Below, piece after piece: positions 1 to 13,835 of a DNA stretch of 20,000 bases; position 1 is the first letter of the stretch; every line of letters starts with the position of its first letter. The stretch is taken from IMG/VR virus record IMGVR_UViG_3300005405_000007; one strand, written 5' to 3'. The notes below the pieces were generated by a model. The model searched no databases. It saw only the letters and a list, made by a program, of their open reading frames with translations, and was not told the origin of the DNA. This DNA comes from an uncultured virus (IMG/VR IMGVR_UViG_3300005405_000007). Its lineage: Duplodnaviria > Heunggongvirae > Uroviricota > Caudoviricetes. The position numbers and the translations under genes are program-made.

Positions 1-1927
1 AATAATCAGCAGCAGTTTTTTCGGCCTCCCAAACACTTCCTAAATTATACCTAGTATCGTCATTGTCATAATGACCAACCATTAGTATTTTCATTCTAGG
101 ATTTCTTAAATAAATTTGCTGTACCAGATAAATAAATGCTCCCACACAATAATGTCTATCATTTGGCGTTGCAGGAACACTAGTAAAAGTAGAAGCTAAA
201 GCGTCTCCCGTAGCATCATTGCGGAAATGCTCAAAAACAATTGCATCTGAAATGTCTATATATGATTCGATGCGGCCAAGAATTGTGCCCGTAATTTTAC
301 CGTTTATACTCAAATCACCTTCGATATCTAAAGAATCATCCCAGCAGTACGAGTACGACAATTGTCGCATACTTTTATATATTTCTCCATCCCCTGCCCA
401 CACATCAACAGGTTTAGAAGAAGGGATTCCAGTAACAGGTGTGACGGGGTCGGAACCAACATACGCATCAGCAAACATATTGCTATAGCCTATAACGCTT
501 GCAACCTGCTCGGACGTGTAGCCATCATTAATTAGATAAGACTTCCGGTCTGCTGTAGTCCAGCAATCAAATAACCGTCTCCGTTCATCTTGTGTCATTG
601 ATAAGGAACGCAATACATTTGCCATCCACATTCCTGTTATACCTAAATCATCCCCAAGGTCTGAAGAATCATAGACTGAACTACCGATGCGCATCATTGA
701 CGAACCGACTGCATTATTAATTACGGTTGCTCCAAGTGCCGCACCAACAAGGATAGGATGTCCCTGTTCGGGAATGGAAGTACCCGTCCATAAAAGTATT
801 TTACCCGCCAAATATAATTCTCCCTGTGAGATTTTTTGCATTTCTTCATAAGTTGCAAGTTTTCTTTTCTCGGAAAGATAATTAACCGTAAGACTTGACG
901 TTAAATTTGTAACATTACTACCATCATTATTCTTTACGATAACTGCAACATATAAAGAATCATCATCAATGGTATATTCTGCAACCCAATCCCCGACAGC
1001 ATTAAAAGGATACCCATATCCTTTATTGTTCGTGAGCACATAAATTAGACAGCCTGAAGATGCTGTAAATCCGCTTATATTATATGTCGGAAGTACAATA
1101 AACGCCCTAGTCAGGATAACAAACTTATTGCCCGTACTGTCGAGGTTGCCAGAAATTAAATTCGCATAAGCACTGGCAATATCTCCGCCATATCTAGTTG
1201 TATTCTCGACCTTTGATAATACTACGTCACCACGACTTACAACAATTAAAATACTGGTTAAATCATGTCCTGATATGTCGATATCGCCTGTATATTTAAC
1301 AATTATATATAAATATTGATAAGTATTTGTGTTGGTAAATGAAGTCACCCAACTCGTTATAGCTGTGAGCGCGGTGCCTTTTATATTAGTTCCATACACA
1401 AGAAAAGAATATCCACTCTTGCAAAATACGTTAGCAACTGGTTTAGAGTCTAATACGGTATTTGCTCTAATATTACTCGCAGCGATTGAACCGTTAGTAA
1501 CATTAAATGTACCAATAATTAATTCGACATTAGATTCCGATATTGTGCCGGAAAAATTATCGCCAATCAAATCATTAATTTTACCAAACTGTCCTCTGAC
1601 TGCGCTACCTATATTTGCGTAGGTTATCCCATCTGCCCCAACCCGACCGTCAATTAACTCCGCATCTCCCGTTGTGCTTCCTTCCGATAACGTTGCAAGA
1701 TTTGTTATTCTTGCGCTTTCTAAAGCCAGATCTACTTGGCTTGCTTTTGCTACAAGCTCTGTCGTAGTTTGTGCCTGTAGTTCGCTAACAGTGGTAACTA
1801 TTTCTTGTAAAGCACCTTCAACTTCAGTTGCAGTTATTATATTTCCTGAATCTGTTAGTGTAACTTTACTAGCACTAACTCCTACTTCTTGCCACGCTGA
1901 ACCATCCCAATATTTATTTTTAGCCAT
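1..1927 (-). CDS. Tail-associated protein with C-terminal SGNH/GDSL-like hydrolase domain (3'-truncated by the window, >=642 codons)
   Basis: Translated by hand: ATG at 1927 preceded by AAGGAG, with no stop to the window edge. Starts MAKNKYWDGSAWQEVG..TATEVEGALQEI..GDAELIDGRVGADGITYANIGSAVRGQ. Later blocks KILLWTGTSIP (Ser at 776-778), INNAVGSS and AIVFEHFRND match SGNH blocks I-III. Confidence 0.85.
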   Translation of the reverse strand, partial: MAKNKYWDGSAWQEVGVSASKVTLTDSGNIITATEVEGALQEIVTTVSELQAQTTTELVAKASQVDLALESARITNLATLSEGSTTGDAELIDGRVGADGITYANIGSAVRGQFGKINDLIGDNFSGTISESNVELIIGTFNVTNGSIAASNIRANTVLDSKPVANVFCKSGYSFLVYGTNIKGTALTAITSWVTSFTNTNTYQYLYIIVKYTGDIDISGHDLTSILIVVSRGDVVLSKVENTTRYGGDIASAYANLISGNLDSTGNKFVILTRAFIVLPTYNISGFTASSGCLIYVLTNNKGYGYPFNAVGDWVAEYTIDDDSLYVAVIVKNNDGSNVTNLTSSLTVNYLSEKRKLATYEEMQKISQGELYLAGKILLWTGTSIPEQGHPILVGAALGATVINNAVGSSMMRIGSSVYDSSDLGDDLGITGMWMANVLRSLSMTQDERRRLFDCWTTADRKSYLINDGYTSEQVASVIGYSNMFADAYVGSDPVTPVTGIPSSKPVDVWAGDGEIYKSMRQLSYSYCWDDSLDIEGDLSINGKITGTILGRIESYIDISDAIVFEHFRNDATGDALASTFTSVPATPNDRHYCVGAFIYLVQQIYLRNPRMKILMVGHYDNDDTRYNLGSVWEAEKTAADY

Positions 1928-1930
1928 TAG

Positions 1931-2710
1931 TTAAACCATCTCCTTAATTAAATATTTTAAATCTTCTGGAACATCTTCAATATAATAAATTTTATATTTT
2001 CTAAAAGTTCGTTGAAATGGATTTTCATTTAACTGTCGTTGAATGCCTCTTGTACTGATGTCTATTTCCTCACTACATCTGGTTTGATTATTCCACATCC
2101 CGATATAATTATTATTTTTATCAAACAAAACAAATTCTCTATGTATATTATTTATTATTATCAACCTATCTCTCAATTTATCTTCTGTAAACTCATCTTT
2201 AAAAAATAATATTTTCTCCTTGACTGAGTGTTTATTTTTCTTTCCTCTTAAAACATTATTAACACTTTGTACACAACTTCCAATCTCTATAGCAAAAGCA
2301 CTTTGAGATATACAACTTCTCTCAAAATTACCTTCCATATCAAAAACTAAAAATTCCTTACCTCCATTCATTACGGATAAATCATCTGCATTACTGTCTG
2401 TTTTCTTACCAAATTGCCCACCTATACTCATATTATATCCACCAGTTCTAAAGCAATCGTAGTAATCAATCCAGTACAGTTCTTTCTCATCCAATTCTTC
2501 TTGATTTTCAGCAACATCAATTATGGACCACTCAAATTTGTCTGCACCATATTTAATAATTGCCAAATGAAAAGCGTAACTACTACCATTATTCGCTTGA
2601 CTAATATGTTCTTTCTTTCTTCTATTTAGATTTCTTATTGTTTGACCAATATATCTTTTATTATTTACTACATTTGTAGCACAATATATTATCCCGTAAC
2701 TATCTTCCAT
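1931..2710 (-). CDS. Free-standing GIY-YIG homing endonuclease with two NUMOD1-like DNA-binding repeats
   Basis: GIIYCATNVVNNKRYIGQT..RRKKEH..ELYWIDYY..GYNMSIGG catalytic motifs. Repeats EFLVFDMEGNFERS.. and EFVLFDKNNNYIGM... RBS AAGGAGG. Confidence 0.9.
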   Translation of the reverse strand: MEDSYGIIYCATNVVNNKRYIGQTIRNLNRRKKEHISQANNGSSYAFHLAIIKYGADKFEWSIIDVAENQEELDEKELYWIDYYDCFRTGGYNMSIGGQFGKKTDSNADDLSVMNGGKEFLVFDMEGNFERSCISQSAFAIEIGSCVQSVNNVLRGKKNKHSVKEKILFFKDEFTEDKLRDRLIIINNIHREFVLFDKNNNYIGMWNNQTRCSEEIDISTRGIQRQLNENPFQRTFRKYKIYYIEDVPEDLKYLIKEMV

Positions 2711-2734
2711 TTTTCCTCCTTAAAATTACACATC

Positions 2735-2763
2735 AAAAAAAGACAGGTGATTAAACCTGTCTT
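2735..2763 (-). terminator. Intrinsic terminator upstream of the GIY-YIG gene
   Basis: Minus strand AAGACAGGT-TTAATC-ACCTGTCTT followed by TTTTT. Confidence 0.75.
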
Positions 2764-2808
2764 AGTAAAACTATATTGTTTTTTTATTTAATAATCGGAT
2801 TAATATAT

Positions 2809-4005
2809 TTATACACTTAAATCTAACCAAACATCATATAAATTTGGTGCTAATGGAGCAGTAAAACTTACCGTTACTTTTTTTACCAAAGTATCATAAA
2901 CAGTAATACTCAAAGTATCAATCCATACCCAAGTACTACCATCATATCGATATAATTTCCCGTCATCAGTTGTTCTTACTGTCCAATAAATTTGTGGGTT
3001 TGGATATGTTGTTGCTATTGCTGAATAAGTCTCCACAGGATTTTTTAATATCATTTTTGATGTATTTATCATATTTTGATATTCAGTTACTCTTGCATTT
3101 TCATTTTCTATTCTAATATTTTCATTAGTTATTCGAGTATTTTCTGCCTCAATAGAATATTGATTATTTTGAATCAAAATTTCAAGATTACCTTTAGTTA
3201 CATTAGCTTCATCATTTATATTTGTTAAATCTGTTTTTGTTGCCAATGCTATACTATTAAAATTATCCAATAAAGTTTTTGTTGCAGAAGCAATTTCATT
3301 ACTGGAATCTAAATTATTTTTTGTTACATTAGCATTTGAAATTGTTGATGCTAAAGTTGATGTTGTTGAATTTCCTGTTGTAATTGCCGTGTTTAGATTA
3401 GATAAAACCGTAGAGGCACTACCAACACTATTTGCCACGTCCTGCATCGATTCCGTTGATGCACCATTTACCGATTTTGTATAAATTCTTTCAGCCGGGA
3501 TCTCGATAACTCCCCGTCCAAAATATGACGCTAAAACTGTTTGCCCAATTTCTGAAGAATTAAAAGTAATTATGGAATTCAAATAATTTACATAAAAAGA
3601 ATTAATAGATAAACCTGTAACTGTTTTAGATTCATTGTAACAAGCAATAGAGTATACAGAAGTATTATCTGGATTTGTTGTCCATATTCCAGATATTGTT
3701 GCTACTTTTGTACTACCCGCATAATCTGTAATTAATTTTGATTGCCCTGCGCCAGTTCCCCCTGTGATAGTTATTGTAAAATTATTATATCTATCATCTA
3801 TAATTGAAGCACTGGATGTTAAAGTTATTGTGCTCGATGACCCTGCTTGTGCTGTACCAACCAATACAGCAGTTACACCCTGAAATTCACTGGGAAGTTC
3901 ATCAAGAACTATTTTACTTTCATTAGAAATTACACACAAATCTTCTTTGCTAACTAAATCTTCTCTTAATTCATACAGAAGTGGATTATTAAATTCAAAT
4001 GCCAT
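2809..4005 (-). CDS. Phage tail-associated (baseplate/fibre adaptor) protein
   Basis: 398 aa, RBS GAGGAGG. Central coiled-coil with E..RI.NE repeats. C-terminal TYPNP..WTV..GKLYRYDGSTW motif typical of Firmicute phage tail proteins. Located downstream of Tal. Confidence 0.7.
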   Translation of the reverse strand: MAFEFNNPLLYELREDLVSKEDLCVISNESKIVLDELPSEFQGVTAVLVGTAQAGSSSTITLTSSASIIDDRYNNFTITITGGTGAGQSKLITDYAGSTKVATISGIWTTNPDNTSVYSIACYNESKTVTGLSINSFYVNYLNSIITFNSSEIGQTVLASYFGRGVIEIPAERIYTKSVNGASTESMQDVANSVGSASTVLSNLNTAITTGNSTTSTLASTISNANVTKNNLDSSNEIASATKTLLDNFNSIALATKTDLTNINDEANVTKGNLEILIQNNQYSIEAENTRITNENIRIENENARVTEYQNMINTSKMILKNPVETYSAIATTYPNPQIYWTVRTTDDGKLYRYDGSTWVWIDTLSITVYDTLVKKVTVSFTAPLAPNLYDVWLDLSV

Positions 4006-4046
4006 TTATTTATTTCCTCCTCTTTATTTATAAACATAAACAACAC

Positions 4047-4078
4047 AAAAAGAGACTCCATATCATAGAGTCCCTTTC
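4047..4078 (-). terminator. Intrinsic terminator of the PPC-like moron
   Basis: Minus strand AAGGGACTCTA-TGATA-TGGAGTCTCTT then TTTGTGTT. Confidence 0.75.
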
Positions 4079-4109
4079 CCCCCATCTATCACTATACCCA
4101 TACTTATTA

Positions 4110-4610
4110 CTACTTCTTATTACTAAAACTCGTACTAAACTTATAATTCAATCCATTATACCCATTAACATTAATGTAATAAACTCCTGGTTCTAAAGAT
4201 ATTTTAAGTTCTCTTCCATAAGTAAATCCGCGTGAACTTAATAATGAACTAACTTCTATTTCATTATTATCGCTGTCATATAGAGAAATTGCGAAATATG
4301 AACTAATATCATAGCATAATTTTGATTTATTTGAAAAATACTGGAATGCATTTCCTCTAATCGTCAATTCACCTTTCTTAGTAATTTTTAATTTATAATA
4401 GTCATAATTTTCAAATTGATCAGTTACACCATTCACTTTTTTATTCAATTTGATAGTATTTGCTTGAGATATTGAATTATTTGGTTCTTTTTCGTTAAAA
4501 TCTGAACTAGCCATCACTGGAATTGCCGATACAAGCAATAAGGAAATTGATAATATAGATGTAGCAAATAATCTACCTAATCTTTTTGTATTTAATTTCT
4601 TCATATTCAT
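4110..4610 (-). CDS. Secreted protein with a PPC / collagenase-CBD-like beta domain (moron)
   Basis: Sec signal peptide (basic N-region, hydrophobic core, VMA/S). EKEPNNSISQAN motif, DYYKL and LEPGVYYINV, all typical of pre-peptidase C-terminal domains. The start may be the second Met at 4604. Confidence 0.75.
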   Translation of the reverse strand: MNMKKLNTKRLGRLFATSILSISLLLVSAIPVMASSDFNEKEPNNSISQANTIKLNKKVNGVTDQFENYDYYKLKITKKGELTIRGNAFQYFSNKSKLCYDISSYFAISLYDSDNNEIEVSSLLSSRGFTYGRELKISLEPGVYYINVNGYNGLNYKFSTSFSNKK

Positions 4611-4651
4611 TTCCTTCCTTTACTATTTTTTGTATTTTTGTTTATGTGTGT

Positions 4652-4680
4652 AGTATATAGTATTGGGGGAAATAAAGCAA
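4652..4680 (-). promoter_or_regulatory. SigA-type promoter for the PPC-like moron
   Basis: TTGCTT (4680-4675), 17-nt spacer, TATACT (4657-4652), about 40 nt upstream of the start, with an AT-rich upstream tract. Confidence 0.65.
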
Positions 4681-4731
4681 GTGATGAAGTGTAGTTTTTT
4701 AAAATTTTATTTTTGTATTATCATCTAGTGT

Positions 4732-4738
4732 TTCGACA
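4732..4738 (-). promoter_or_regulatory. Candidate Spo0A box (TGTCGAA)
   Basis: Exact TGNCGAA match in the intergenic region about 50 bp upstream of the moron -35. A single 7-mer, so it could be chance. Confidence 0.3.
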
Positions 4739-4853
4739 CATATATACAAAATAGATAAAATTTTTTAAATCTTAGACAAAGTAATCGAAACAAAATTATG
4801 ATTATAACTTTTATTCACTGAACGAATTTTAACATAATCCGTAAATGTATTTC

Positions 4854-5093
4854 CTATATATATTCTTCTGACAACTCATTATCTTTCATATAAATCTTTA
4901 TCAAGTTTAATGAACTTAGAAATTTATCATGAATTTCAATTACATCTGGCAATATTCCCTCGGAATCTTTACCAATCATTATATTTAATAATACATTTAT
5001 CGGATTAGAGATATTGTCAACATATTCTCGAATGTCATTTATTTTATTAAATGATTCTCCGCTAGATAATTCTACTCTACTTACCACTCTCAA
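4854..5093 (-). CDS. Hypothetical 79-aa phage protein
   Basis: TTG start close to a GAGGTGA RBS, 26 nt after the Tal stop. No recognised motif. Confidence 0.55.
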   Translation of the reverse strand: MRVVSRVELSSGESFNKINDIREYVDNISNPINVLLNIMIGKDSEGILPDVIEIHDKFLSSLNLIKIYMKDNELSEEYI

Positions 5094-5119
5094 TCACCTC
5101 ACTTTATAATAATGTTATT

Positions 5120-8100
5120 TTACTGATGTACGAAATTAGCTTCTACCCACTGCTTAACAAGAATTATTTGATCATCTATATAGGACAGTGCCCCACTTAT
5201 TTCATCTAATGCTGTGTTCGCTGTGCTTGATGCCGTATTTGCCGTATTAGATGCGCTTATTGCTATTGAAAGAGCATCACTTGCTGCCATATTTGCAGCA
5301 TTTGCTGTTGTTGCTGCTGAATTAGCATTAGTAAGAGCAGTATTTGCCGTATCTAATGCTGTTTGGATATCAGTCTCAGTAGATGATGTGTTTTGTGTCC
5401 ATCCACCATTACTAATTAAATACAATAAATGAGCCTTAGTTGAATAATAATTATGAAAATAATTATTAAAATCATTTCTATTTATAGTTATCGTATCGGA
5501 TGTAGACAACGAAAGAGTAGATATATAACTAGCTAATGCATTATATGCAGGTGTAAAATAGTTAGTAGCATACAATGCTGATCCACCAATAGTTATATTC
5601 AATCCACCTTCAGTAGTATAAAAGGTTTGATTTATAATCTCAGGATATTCAGAGTATATAACATCCCACTCTTTACTCACAAACTTTTTCTCAAATGCTA
5701 AAAGTTTAGAATCATCTGCATAGTCTTCCAATATATCCATAGCTTGAGTATCCTGTATTTTTGCCCATGTATAGGCAGTAACTAATGATGAATCTAAGTA
5801 ATAAAAATCCGTATAGGTTCCTATATAAGTTCCGGGATCTTCACCATTATTTGTTGTAAAAGTTGACCCTCCATCATTTGAATATTTAATATGAAGATAT
5901 GAACTAGAGCCATTAGAACCAGGAGTCCCATCTGTGCCTACTATTTTACTCCATGTATATTTTGTAGGATCTGTAGACGCTGTTGGGTTTGAATCAGAAT
6001 AAATTCCTATATAAGTACCACTAGCAAAATTAAAACCTGATGTTCCATCACTATTTGTTGCATAAGCAATATGCATATAAGAAGCTTTTGTATCAGCATA
6101 TTCTTTAGCAGATGTCGCAATAAATTCCAATAACTCTTCTCTCGTGCTATAATAATCACTGAACTTACCATCAAATTCATCTCTATCAATGTTAGTAGTT
6201 TTGGTAAGATCACTTAAAATCGGAGTTGGATTACTAGTATTATTAGGAAGAACCGTAACCAAAAGATAAGTATATAGAGCATTATAAGCAGTATCATAAG
6301 GTATGTAATAAGAAGTCATCTCAGTTGATGGATACAATAATGCCTGTGCGTCTAAATTTATTTTTTCTACAACTATTGTATCCCATATTGGTTTTAATTG
6401 AGTTTTTTCGCTTTTTGTTATTTTATTACCGTCTGAAATATCACTTAATTCTTCCAATGCTAAAATGGCATCTGTTTTCGCCTTATTTGCTAATGCCTTT
6501 GTTATATTTGCTACAATATCATCAGTATATTCATTAGAATCAATCCAGTCCGTAGCGACATAGCTTCCAGTTTCTTTTTCTACCACACAAATATTCACAC
6601 TATTGTTTGCTAATTCTAACCATAAGTCCTGAATACTGTAAGGAGGTTGTGGTGTTACTGTAAATATTCGAACGCTGGCATCTATAGACCCTTGGGACAT
6701 TGAAGCTGATTTTAAAGCATTTAGTACATTTGTGTCGGTAATTTGTTCCCATAATGTGCCACTAAATCTGTAACCATATCCAGTAGATATATCGTAAAAT
6801 AAATCTCCTATATGATAATTTTTTATTGTTGTTGTCGTCCACTCACTAGCAGGTAAATTCAATAAAGTAGGAGCATATCCATAAAACCAACATTCAATTT
6901 TACTATCTGTTTGATTACTAAAATTTGTAGTATCTGCTGTATATAATATATTCACAAATTCTACTAATTTAGCACTTACTACTGTATTTGCTATTTCTGC
7001 TTGCATTGTTGATATTTTTGTTTGTAATAATGCTTTTGTATCTGACACATTTTGTAAATAAGTAGCAATTGTTTCTTTATCTGTCGCAGTTATTACAATC
7101 GGAGGAATATAAGCACTACTTGGTTTACCTATCCATTGGTTTAATTCTGTAGTTAAGTTATTTATTGCCGTTACATAATTCATTTTTTCATTTGCGGGAT
7201 TATCACTATCTCCTAATCCTAAATCAGTGGCTAGTTGTATAAATGGTTGAGATTCTGCGATAATCTGTGCTAAACTTGATGACAAATCATTTGCGTCCTT
7301 TTCACTGACACTTCCATCACCTAAATCAGTGTTTACAATTTGAGCTAAATTCACAATGGATTCTGCCAAACCAGTTATAGCATCAGATAAATATGTTTTT
7401 GCTACACCCATAATTGCTTTAAGCAAATTAATTTTTACAGCATAATATGTTGAAAAATTATCAAGAAATAAATTTGTAACTGTAGAACTATGTGTCATAT
7501 CTGATAATATAGGTGTGATATAGTCATATAATATTGAATATCCTACTTCATAAACATCCAAAGAATTACTTATAGTTGGATAATTTGTTAAATCATAATA
7601 ATTCGCACTCGCTTCAATATTGGGTTTTTCTGCAACAATAGCATCCCAATATTTTTTTACTGTTTTCTTTTCAGTAGTGGTTATTAATCCATTAGTAGAT
7701 ACAATTTTAGTTAAATCTAAATTTGCTGCATCTGCCTCTACTATTGCTTTTTGTACTGCTAATGTTGCTTCAGCAGATATTAATGTTGAACCAATTGCAA
7801 TTCCATAGGGAGTGCCATCGATTATTTTTGTTGTAATATCCGCATAAGGAGATTTTGTTCCTGAATCACTAAATACTTCCAATCCAGTTCCTTTGAATAA
7901 TCCTGGAATACCAATGAATGCAAATGGAAATTTACCAACTCCTGTGTCTGTACCTGTCCCTCCAACTTTAATCATTGCATCTAATAATGCTTGGTTCCAA
8001 CCTATTGAATTATATGATGTCAATACTATAATTACACTATCATCAAATGTTGCTGTATCAGTATATGAATTCAATTTTGTTGCTAATGCAGTTCTTGCTG

Positions 8101-13382: not shown

Positions 13383-13835
13383 TTATTTTATCTTATCTGA
13401 TTTGTAATACACTTCATATGTTTCCCCCACGTTAACTTCATAAGGTATTATTCCCTCTAGTGTTTCACCTGTTTTAATTGTGCTACTTTTTAATGTTTCT
13501 TTATCTTTTGGTTGTTTATCAGTTTCAGTTAATGTTTTTGTCGATGTTTTGATTGATATATCATTCGGATTAAAATTTATGGCTTTATCAGTCTTGTTTT
13601 CTAATTTAACATATAGCAAAACTAATTCCTTACCGTCTTTTAATTCATTCCATTTATCAATCTTAGTTCTTTCCTCATTTGTAATTGCAACTAAAACTTT
13701 TTTAGTTTCAACATTTGTTGAAGTTTTTACAGGAGATACTTCACCTATAGCTGGTTTTGATTCTATTTTTTCACCGCATCCAATAACCGATAAAGATACT
13801 AATGTAACCAATAAGACACTAATTAGTTTTTTCAC
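13383..13835 (-). CDS. DUF4352-like lipoprotein (moron)
   Basis: GTG start with GGAGG. Lipobox VIG-C20. LYVKLENKTDK..FNPNDI..IKTGETLEGIIPYEV Ig-like pattern. Confidence 0.8.
   Translation of the reverse strand: MKKLISVLLVTLVSLSVIGCGEKIESKPAIGEVSPVKTSTNVETKKVLVAITNEERTKIDKWNELKDGKELVLLYVKLENKTDKAINFNPNDISIKTSTKTLTETDKQPKDKETLKSSTIKTGETLEGIIPYEVNVGETYEVYYKSDKIK

Follow-up and report, generated by a model that had tools for sequence, protein, structure and literature searches.

We analyzed a 20,000-nucleotide (nt) stretch of DNA from an uncultured Caudoviricetes virus (IMG/VR IMGVR_UViG_3300005405_000007; the whole stretch is hereafter called the window), in which the genes of a tail fiber stalk and of its putatively enzymatic tip follow each other with an endonuclease gene in between. 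The stalk protein ends with the first half, and the tip protein starts with the second half, of one four-stranded module that exists whole in other fiber proteins, and the two halves most likely join the stalk to the tip as a socket (strands β1-β2) and a plug (strands β3-β4). An earlier reading, made from the sequence only, had noted a module half on each side of a homing endonuclease gene, and this was confirmed with a profile of the contiguous module (A3) and with Pfam PF01541. The features of the locus are as follows (aa, amino acids; iE, independent E-value).

2809..4005, minus strand: stalk protein, 398 aa, YomF-like, with a YomF_N domain, a long helical middle, a whole module and the socket (PF27067, YomF_N, on homologues; match to SPβ YomF)
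2917..3045, minus strand: whole (contiguous) module in the stalk, residues 321-363 (match to the GVE2 ORF18 N-terminus; profile A3)
2812..2877, minus strand: socket, strands β1-β2 at the stalk C-terminus, residues 377-398 (A3 positions 3-24, iE 2e-6; profile-profile comparison of sockets with the module by hhalign, 96.8%; modeled interface)
2740..2763, minus strand: terminator-like hairpin with a U run, in the 98-nt spacer behind the stalk stop (9-bp stem in both folds; whole spacer z -1.8)
1931..2710, minus strand: free-standing GIY-YIG endonuclease gene, 259 aa (Pfam PF01541, E 1e-10; PHROG homing endonuclease families)
1..1927, minus strand: tip protein, first 642 of 743 aa within the window (length from locus L323)
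1880..1927, minus strand: plug, strands β3-β4 at the tip N-terminus, residues 1-16 (A3 positions 30-45, iE 0.022; hhalign of plugs with the module, 71%; modeled interface residues 1-9, 12 and 15)
1799..1867, minus strand: conserved fiber motif behind the plug, tip residues 21-43 (tips diverge shortly past the motif)
805 downward, minus strand: SGNH/GDSL-like C-terminal domain of the tip, from about residue 375 (Atlas similarity; motifs by eye)
6740..6814, minus strand: degenerate whole module in the Tal-like protein, residues 1265-1291 (A3 iE 0.029, weak)

The stalk and tip proteins carry complementary halves of one module

The C-terminus of the stalk reads VTVSFTAPLAPNLYDVWLDLSV, followed directly by the stop codon (open reading frame, ORF, 4005-2809, minus strand), and the N-terminus of the tip reads MAKNKYWDGSAWQEVG (ORF from 1927, minus strand). 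Scanning viral contigs with the motif of the first half returned at least 123 stretches, with 118 unique matches that had enough flanking sequence. Among the matches listed, 93 of the 118 continue past the motif, 74 of these with a tryptophan (Trp) 5 to 26 residues later, and 25 end no more than 6 residues past the WxD and are C-terminal. From the 71 usable whole modules, again among the matches listed, 62 were aligned to give A3. The module had been taken for a normally contiguous element of Firmicute tail fibers; the contiguous form is indeed common (93 of 118), but modules also occur outside Firmicutes, and splitting is frequent (25 of 118). The contiguous relatives that had been pointed out within the window are both present, one in the stalk (residues 346-368 match A3 with iE 2.4e-5) and the weaker one in Tal listed above.

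AlphaFold predicted the first contiguous module as four strands (predicted local distance difference test, pLDDT, of 86). The gene boundary falls between β2 and β3 of this fold, and in the split pairs compared the cut is always at this point. The nearest solved folds are small trimerization modules of phage fibers and multiplexin collagens, namely the trimerization domain of collagen XVIII (Z 5.3; root mean square deviation 3.8 Å, 50 residues aligned), the N-terminus of GVE2 ORF18 (PDB 7CHU; Z 4.9, 4.0 Å, 51 aligned), and those of collagen XV, CBA120 TSP3 and Mtd (N-terminus, 1YU0), with Z ranging from 5.3 to 3.0. These, and residues 1-38 of crAss001 gp21, resemble the four-strand fold in weak structural matches, although the best-scoring entries all represent one type of trimeric module. 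In the solved modules most or all of the module belongs to a single chain, whereas here two genes encode it, with the cut between β2 and β3. In sequence, the inner whole module of the stalk matches residues 7-49 of 7CHU (E 9e-5), the sole match when the PDB was searched with the stalk and the socket profile; nothing significant was retrieved from the PDB with the profiles of the whole module and of the plug or with SPβ YomF. DUF7360 matches 8 of the 62 modules at E ≤0.1 (best 1.4e-5; the first member scores 16.5 bits against a cut-off of 27.6) and DUF2793 matches 1 of the 62 at the same threshold, and a search of NCBIfam with the module gave nothing useful.

A fused homologue, of the kind that the sequence-only reading had suggested looking for, was found in P0128 (410 aa). 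Its residues 7-247 align with the entire socket-ended protein of L249 (33% identity, E 9e-44), and 8 residues past its WxD begins a 44-aa segment with 66% identity to the plug-bearing start of the window's tip. This protein matches the whole A3 profile in one piece (iE 1e-10). The socket and the plug complement each other as parts of a single domain that is also found whole. The single-sequence AlphaFold model of P0128 had a pLDDT of 38 and was not used. A whole module is also present at the end of P0042, and in L001 the stalk family of the window is fused to the tip-type motif without the split module.

Sockets and plugs co-occur in neighboring genes

The second half was surveyed in four scans with the plug-start pattern M-x3-KYW[DN]G, which returned 3, 98, 46 and 54 stretches. 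The count left out the loci chosen by their socket (L108-L230) and also L001-L004, internal matches, ORFs shorter than 50 aa and starts that lack a Shine-Dalgarno-like site; identical first 25 residues were collapsed. This gave 87 plug starts, 42 of non-collagen and 45 of collagen type. A socket-ended frame was located at most 260 nt upstream of 20 of the 42 non-collagen plug starts and at most 2.6 kb upstream of 26, and the socket motif was found at 0 of 226 downstream C-termini used as control. The half-motifs thus co-occur beyond chance in neighboring genes, a test that the sequence-only reading had named, and chance adjacency was rejected (20/42 against 0/226); the Fisher p of 7e-19 overstates the independence of the rows because many of them are related phages. 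None of the 20 adjacent pairs has an endonuclease gene between its members. In the six distant pairs (260 nt to 2.6 kb) the intervening gene is GIY-YIG in five and another gene in one. Stop and start are separated by -4 to 187 nt at the endonuclease-free split boundaries, and Bacillus, Sporosarcina, Paenisporosarcina and a Saccharibacteria metagenome-assembled genome are among the hosts named for adjacent pairs.

The collagen-type starts behave differently, with a C-terminal socket upstream in 0 of 45. In a separate count of collagen-type plug genes, 10 of which had less than 600 nt of upstream sequence, an internal orphan socket was present in an upstream protein in 32 of 47 and within the plug protein in 3 of 47. 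The upstream internal orphan sockets of these loci (L010-L107) are possible branch points. Two further arrangements were observed. In L043, L247, L252, L259, L302, L310, L076 and L136, two different tail proteins of one module each end in a socket, but only a single plug gene can be recognized, so that several fibers may be capped by the same plug protein. In one phage family (L277, L278, L281, L284, L287, L308 and L318), plug-started gene cassettes are repeated behind a common leader, sometimes after another tip gene, and could be an array of alternative tips.

Some proteins carry three plugs in tandem

Thirteen proteins encoded near socket-ended genes carry three tandem plugs at one end, either the N- or the C-terminus, and none with four or more was seen. 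Six were found by regular expression (L076, L140, L167, L271, Gordonia phage Neville gp33 and Rhodobacter phage RcPutin gp14), six have a degenerate third unit read by eye (L144, L156, L158, L164, L172 and L235), and one was recognized by eye only (L152). Three of the nine two-unit matches (L028, L181 and L187) were discarded as short off-frame noise. The coordinates in the entries of the cultured Rhodobacter and Gordonia phages are:

L331:2501-2640, three-plug segment
L332:2500-2617, three-plug segment

RcPutin has a textbook socket at the end of gp12 and the triple plug at the end of gp14, and Neville gp32 ends in a divergent socket-like segment. In Moorella phage MTATph1 the match is limited to the motif behind the plug. 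Of 15 C-terminal sockets, 7 have tandem plugs downstream at a distance of up to 2.5 kb, against 0 of 60 whole modules, and by eye some plug was recognized downstream of 12 of the 15. We infer from these arrangements that a socket trimer would need three hairpins, supplied either by three chains or by one. The presence of exactly three repeats suggests a way to place a monomer on a trimer.

The halves are predicted to rebuild the module in a 3:3 complex

We modeled three copies of stalk residues 316-398 with three copies of tip residues 1-70, using alignments of natural split pairs (A1 and A2, 33 rows). The model scored 0.80, 0.82 and 0.79, and the best of 3 controls scored 0.03. The mark it passed is reached by 116 of 157 solved pairs and by 2 of 215 mismatched pairs, a calibration that holds only roughly for this complex. 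At least 97% of contacts are shared between runs, and the partners have a pLDDT of at least 88. Confident contacts are confined to stalk residues 379, 383-384, 387-396 and 398 and tip residues 1-9, 12, 15 and 23; the inner whole module of the stalk stays outside the interface. The modeled register is antiparallel (D391-W7, W393-K5, D395-K3), so that the β2-β3 pair of the whole module is rebuilt. The model supports binding of the tip by the stalk without showing it. The idea of the sequence-only reading that the halves re-form one domain by β-strand complementation is likewise supported by a predicted 3:3 interaction confined to the half-motifs.

A probable plug-and-socket joint between stalk and tip

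These results suggest the following mechanism. A four-stranded module of approximately 40 residues, normally located within one fiber chain and packed as a trimer, would here be encoded in two halves. The stalk trimer would end in three β1-β2 half-modules, the sockets, and each subunit of the tip trimer would start with a β3-β4 hairpin, the plug, that aligns antiparallel to β2 and completes the aromatic core. Because the plug would both pair with β2 and fill the core, stalk and tip could be joined head to tail on the virion without a covalent link, and because recombination would exchange the enzyme but leave the plug in front of it conserved, every plug-bearing tip would fit. The same joint may operate in many phages: fiber-like partners carry one plug per chain, a single chain with three plugs in tandem would suffice to cap a trimer, and internal sockets might give branches. 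The GIY-YIG gene would have been inserted later into an existing spacer, behind a terminator-like hairpin.

For a broader proposal the balance is about even: one standard connector may be used by tailed phages across several host phyla, a trimerization module split after β2 whose socket trimer takes three single-plug chains, takes one three-plug chain (a monomeric head on a trimer, which would solve the symmetry mismatch), or sits inside a chain as a branch. Receptor-binding and enzyme heads would then sit on a mount that is cross-compatible and needs no chaperone, and that would have gone unrecognized in cultured phages (SPβ YomF/YomE, RcPutin gp12/gp14 and Neville gp32/gp33). With such a connector, a rule read from the sequence would tell which small tail proteins attach to one another, in a region where cryo-electron microscopy usually loses signal to flexibility. 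A 22-residue socket and a 16-residue plug would also make a possible compact trimeric protein connector.

Several observations weigh against the plug-and-socket joint. No strict socket lies within 2.6 kb of 16 of the 42 non-collagen plug starts; 11 of these come from a single phage family whose tip cassettes are repeated (several of them on short contigs), 3 have longer-tailed sockets and 2 are others. Related phages are present among the rows, and the survey patterns presuppose the motif. At some loci two socket-ended proteins share one visible plug gene, which makes the partner ambiguous, and three of the 15 C-terminal sockets (L122, L126 and L145) have no plug within 2.5 kb, even by eye. 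The 3:3 model may have passed through likeness to solved whole modules, and the fold matches are weak (Foldseek E 0.2-1.5; Z below 6, under the trust level of the tool for a lone match). Finally, with a terminator-like hairpin between the genes, the output of the tip could fall below that of the stalk.

The alternative that survives best, which we still consider unlikely, is that each half is self-sufficient: the socket would cap the stalk trimer, the plug would seed folding of the tip, both proteins would attach to the virion separately, and their adjacency would merely reflect gene order. In its favor, tail genes cluster in any case, and there are sockets with no recognizable plug in the vicinity as well as plugs that lack a socket. 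However, the cut is always between β2 and β3, the stalk homologues that lack a socket (L002 and L003) have no plug gene behind them, and tandem plugs follow split modules and not whole ones (7/15 against 0/60). The modeled interface also lies on the two halves only, with controls at or below 0.03.

The endonuclease gene is incidental to the split

The protein encoded between stalk and tip is a predicted free-standing homing endonuclease, with a GIY-YIG N-terminal domain above the cut-off (42.1 bits against 22.6). Its ORF starts 98 nt from the stalk stop and ends 3 nt before the tip ATG, and in L007 the endonuclease gene overlaps the tip start by 14 nt. An AAGGAG ahead of the tip ATG lies inside the last codons of the endonuclease gene (window 1931-1950), and the same arrangement occurs in L325, L007, L006 and L048. 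Further endonuclease-like genes are found at stalk-tip and tip-lysin spacers (L005:4226-5744, L006:7350-9204, L007:5663-6427 and L003:10496-11260), and a hairpin with a T run precedes such piled-up genes where the upstream spacer was read (L003, L005 and L007).

The sequence-only reading had offered gene fission at the endonuclease site as the alternative, that is, stalk and tip were once one gene that was split by the GIY-YIG insertion, the halves now re-associating or being relics. A precedent exists in phage Aeh1, where nrdA was split by insertion of the endonuclease gene mobE and the products of the two resulting genes assemble (PMC3045599). Within this stalk family, GIY-YIG lies between the halves in all six loci that have both (the window, L323, L325, L005, L006 and L007), and fused forms exist (P0128, and in L001 a stalk joined to the tip-type motif without the split module). 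In both Aeh1 and the window an endonuclease gene stands between the two genes, but here the split is common without any endonuclease, as in the 20 adjacent pairs. A matched pair bears on this directly: L319/L048 has the endonuclease, L305 is an empty-site relative with a 51-nt spacer and none, and the two are split alike, being 77% identical in the final 90 residues of the stalk and 69% identical across 170 residues of the plug protein. In SPβ, yomF and yomE lie 36 nt apart with a stem-loop, and the endonuclease gene yomD is behind yomE; GIY-YIG genes related to that of the window (paralogues, 49%) are located behind the tip gene in L003 and L007. Terminator-like hairpins follow the socket stop with and without an endonuclease alike, with similar ones in the endonuclease-free spacers of L061 (z -4.4) and SPβ (annotated stem-loop). 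Since the matched pair is split alike with and without the endonuclease, and SPβ looks split at the same point, fission by GIY-YIG is not needed. A split of the Aeh1 nrdA type was rejected because the endonuclease-free relatives (L305, the 20 adjacent pairs and, as a candidate, SPβ) are not intact but split at the same point, and the paralogues behind the tip gene and the indifference of the hairpin to the endonuclease also speak against this model. We consider fission very improbable and the endonuclease an incidental passenger, inserted later into an existing spacer rather than being the cause of the split.

Restoration of a single fused protein after transcription, by group I intron splicing or ribosomal bypassing, is the least credible explanation: GIY-YIG genes are often located in group I introns and the halves would form a plausible whole module, but no intron family matched positions 1-5200 even at E 5 (an Rfam scan gave three weak, unrelated matches), an intron core would not fit into the 98 nt before and 3 nt after the endonuclease ORF, translation of the tip can start at an ATG of its own with AAGGAG upstream, and the same stop/start boundary occurs in spacers of -4 to 187 nt without an endonuclease.

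SPβ-like phages contain a candidate split pair

In SPβ, phi3T, two more SPβ-like phages and SPR, YomF has a socket-like end and the next gene, after 36-42 nt, a plug-like start. The YomF end ranked 1 of 250 sequence windows for the socket and the YomE start 14 of 625 for the plug, which lacks the second Trp.

L334:3190-3420, SPβ yomF/yomE boundary: two tandem socket-like segments at the YomF end, divergent plug next
L336:2690-2930, SPR: the same arrangement

The tips of SPβ and SPR have mainly their first 39 aa in common. The yomG-yomF-yomE region resembles the window in its gene order (Tal, stalk, enzyme tip, lysis) and its YomF-like stalk; it differs in its divergent halves, the two socket-like segments, the plug without the second Trp and the lack of an endonuclease between the genes. 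YomF/YomE is thus a candidate split pair, a lead rather than a result, which would make the idea testable by ordinary laboratory genetics in a Bacillus subtilis phage. The YomF-like gene of Brevibacillus phage Sundance lacks a socket, and no plug was seen in the genes that follow it. Literature searches within the scope given below found no paper on a YomF-YomE joint.

Comparison with known connections between subunits

In T-even gp37-gp38, TP901-1 BppU-BppL and Mu fiber-Tfa, a separate distal protein is held noncovalently on the fiber trimer; these systems and the A-1(L) neck fiber resemble the joint proposed here in placing a distal protein on a fiber trimer. To our knowledge, none of them has been described as completing one split domain that also exists whole, or with one-plug and three-plug versions. 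In chaperone-usher pili a domain is completed in trans by the terminal segment of the next subunit (donor-strand complementation). The pilus donor strand completes an immunoglobulin fold with one strand, depends on a chaperone and joins monomeric subunits, whereas here a hairpin would complete a small trimeric module and no chaperone is evident. The joint would be a form of inter-protein strand complementation. The proteins of the A-1(L) neck fiber (gp82-gp81-gp80) form trimers head to tail, with N-terminal β-hairpins modeled onto the preceding trimer (PMC10966104), and residues 1-38 of crAss001 gp21 bind the capsid as a trimer (PMC10172136); other attachments are described in PMC12917162 and PMC10713586. 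The main text of PMC12143355 contains neither the word split nor the word complementation. Full-text literature searches, with most subscription papers outside their scope and supplements unread, returned no description of this split module.

Tips are exchanged behind the plug

Six related tips have only their first 43-76 residues in common, with 2 partial exceptions, and relatives of the tip bear GDSL (P0125) or pectate-lyase-like (L005) domains. The window and L325 share stalks that are 79% identical (P0005) and endonucleases that are 90% identical, and their tips are alike only over residues 1-65. These comparisons support exchange of tips at the DNA level behind a conserved plug, and the joint would account for the exchange of unrelated enzyme tips (GDSL-type, pectate-lyase-like and others) behind a conserved start of 45-75 residues while the stalk is unchanged. 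The sequence-only reading had pictured an exchangeable tip on a conserved stalk; the exchange of tips behind the plug held, but comparison of homologues showed that the stalk is a mosaic and is not strictly conserved. The stalk also contains an insert of approximately 70 residues (window 3652-3860, residues about 49-118, GTAQAG..ITLT..YNN.TITITGGTG.GQ), which is the apparent target of most weak homologue matches and is absent from some stalk relatives.

The tip of the window is a putative SGNH/GDSL hydrolase, as suggested by its likeness to GDSL-type clusters (Atlas feature score 0.91, TM 0.45-0.57) and by GTS, HFRND and DIHP motifs read by eye. A Pfam search of the tip gave no match and a PDB sequence search no significant one, and a GenBank phage search with the tip start gave matches only behind the plug, or weak ones.

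The locus within the tail gene region

The stalk belongs to the YomF family by its YomF_N domain (precomputed) and its position between Tal and the enzyme tip, and it has two matches to SPβ YomF (E 4e-12 and 2e-8, two-sequence comparison). The window covers morphogenesis genes on the minus strand of a phage or prophage of siphovirus type, with genes for capsid, head-tail, tape measure, Dit-like and Tal-like (1826 aa, central tail) proteins, 2 small genes, and then the stalk (4005-2809), GIY-YIG (2710-1931) and tip (from 1927) genes, the last of which leaves the window at its edge. The near-identical locus L323 contains the full tip of 743 aa, with 1 residue different from the tip of the window, followed by a lysozyme-like gene and 2 small genes that, from their sequence, probably serve lysis. 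G+C content is approximately 0.27-0.32 over the stalk and endonuclease genes and rises to 0.36-0.43 over the tip. Promoter-like sites (21 observed, 24 expected) were uninformative. Two genes with signal-peptide- or lipoprotein-like starts break up the tail module (window 4110-4610 and 13383-13835, minus strand), the second with a match to DUF4352; both are probably morons, since unrelated genes occupy the first site in relatives.

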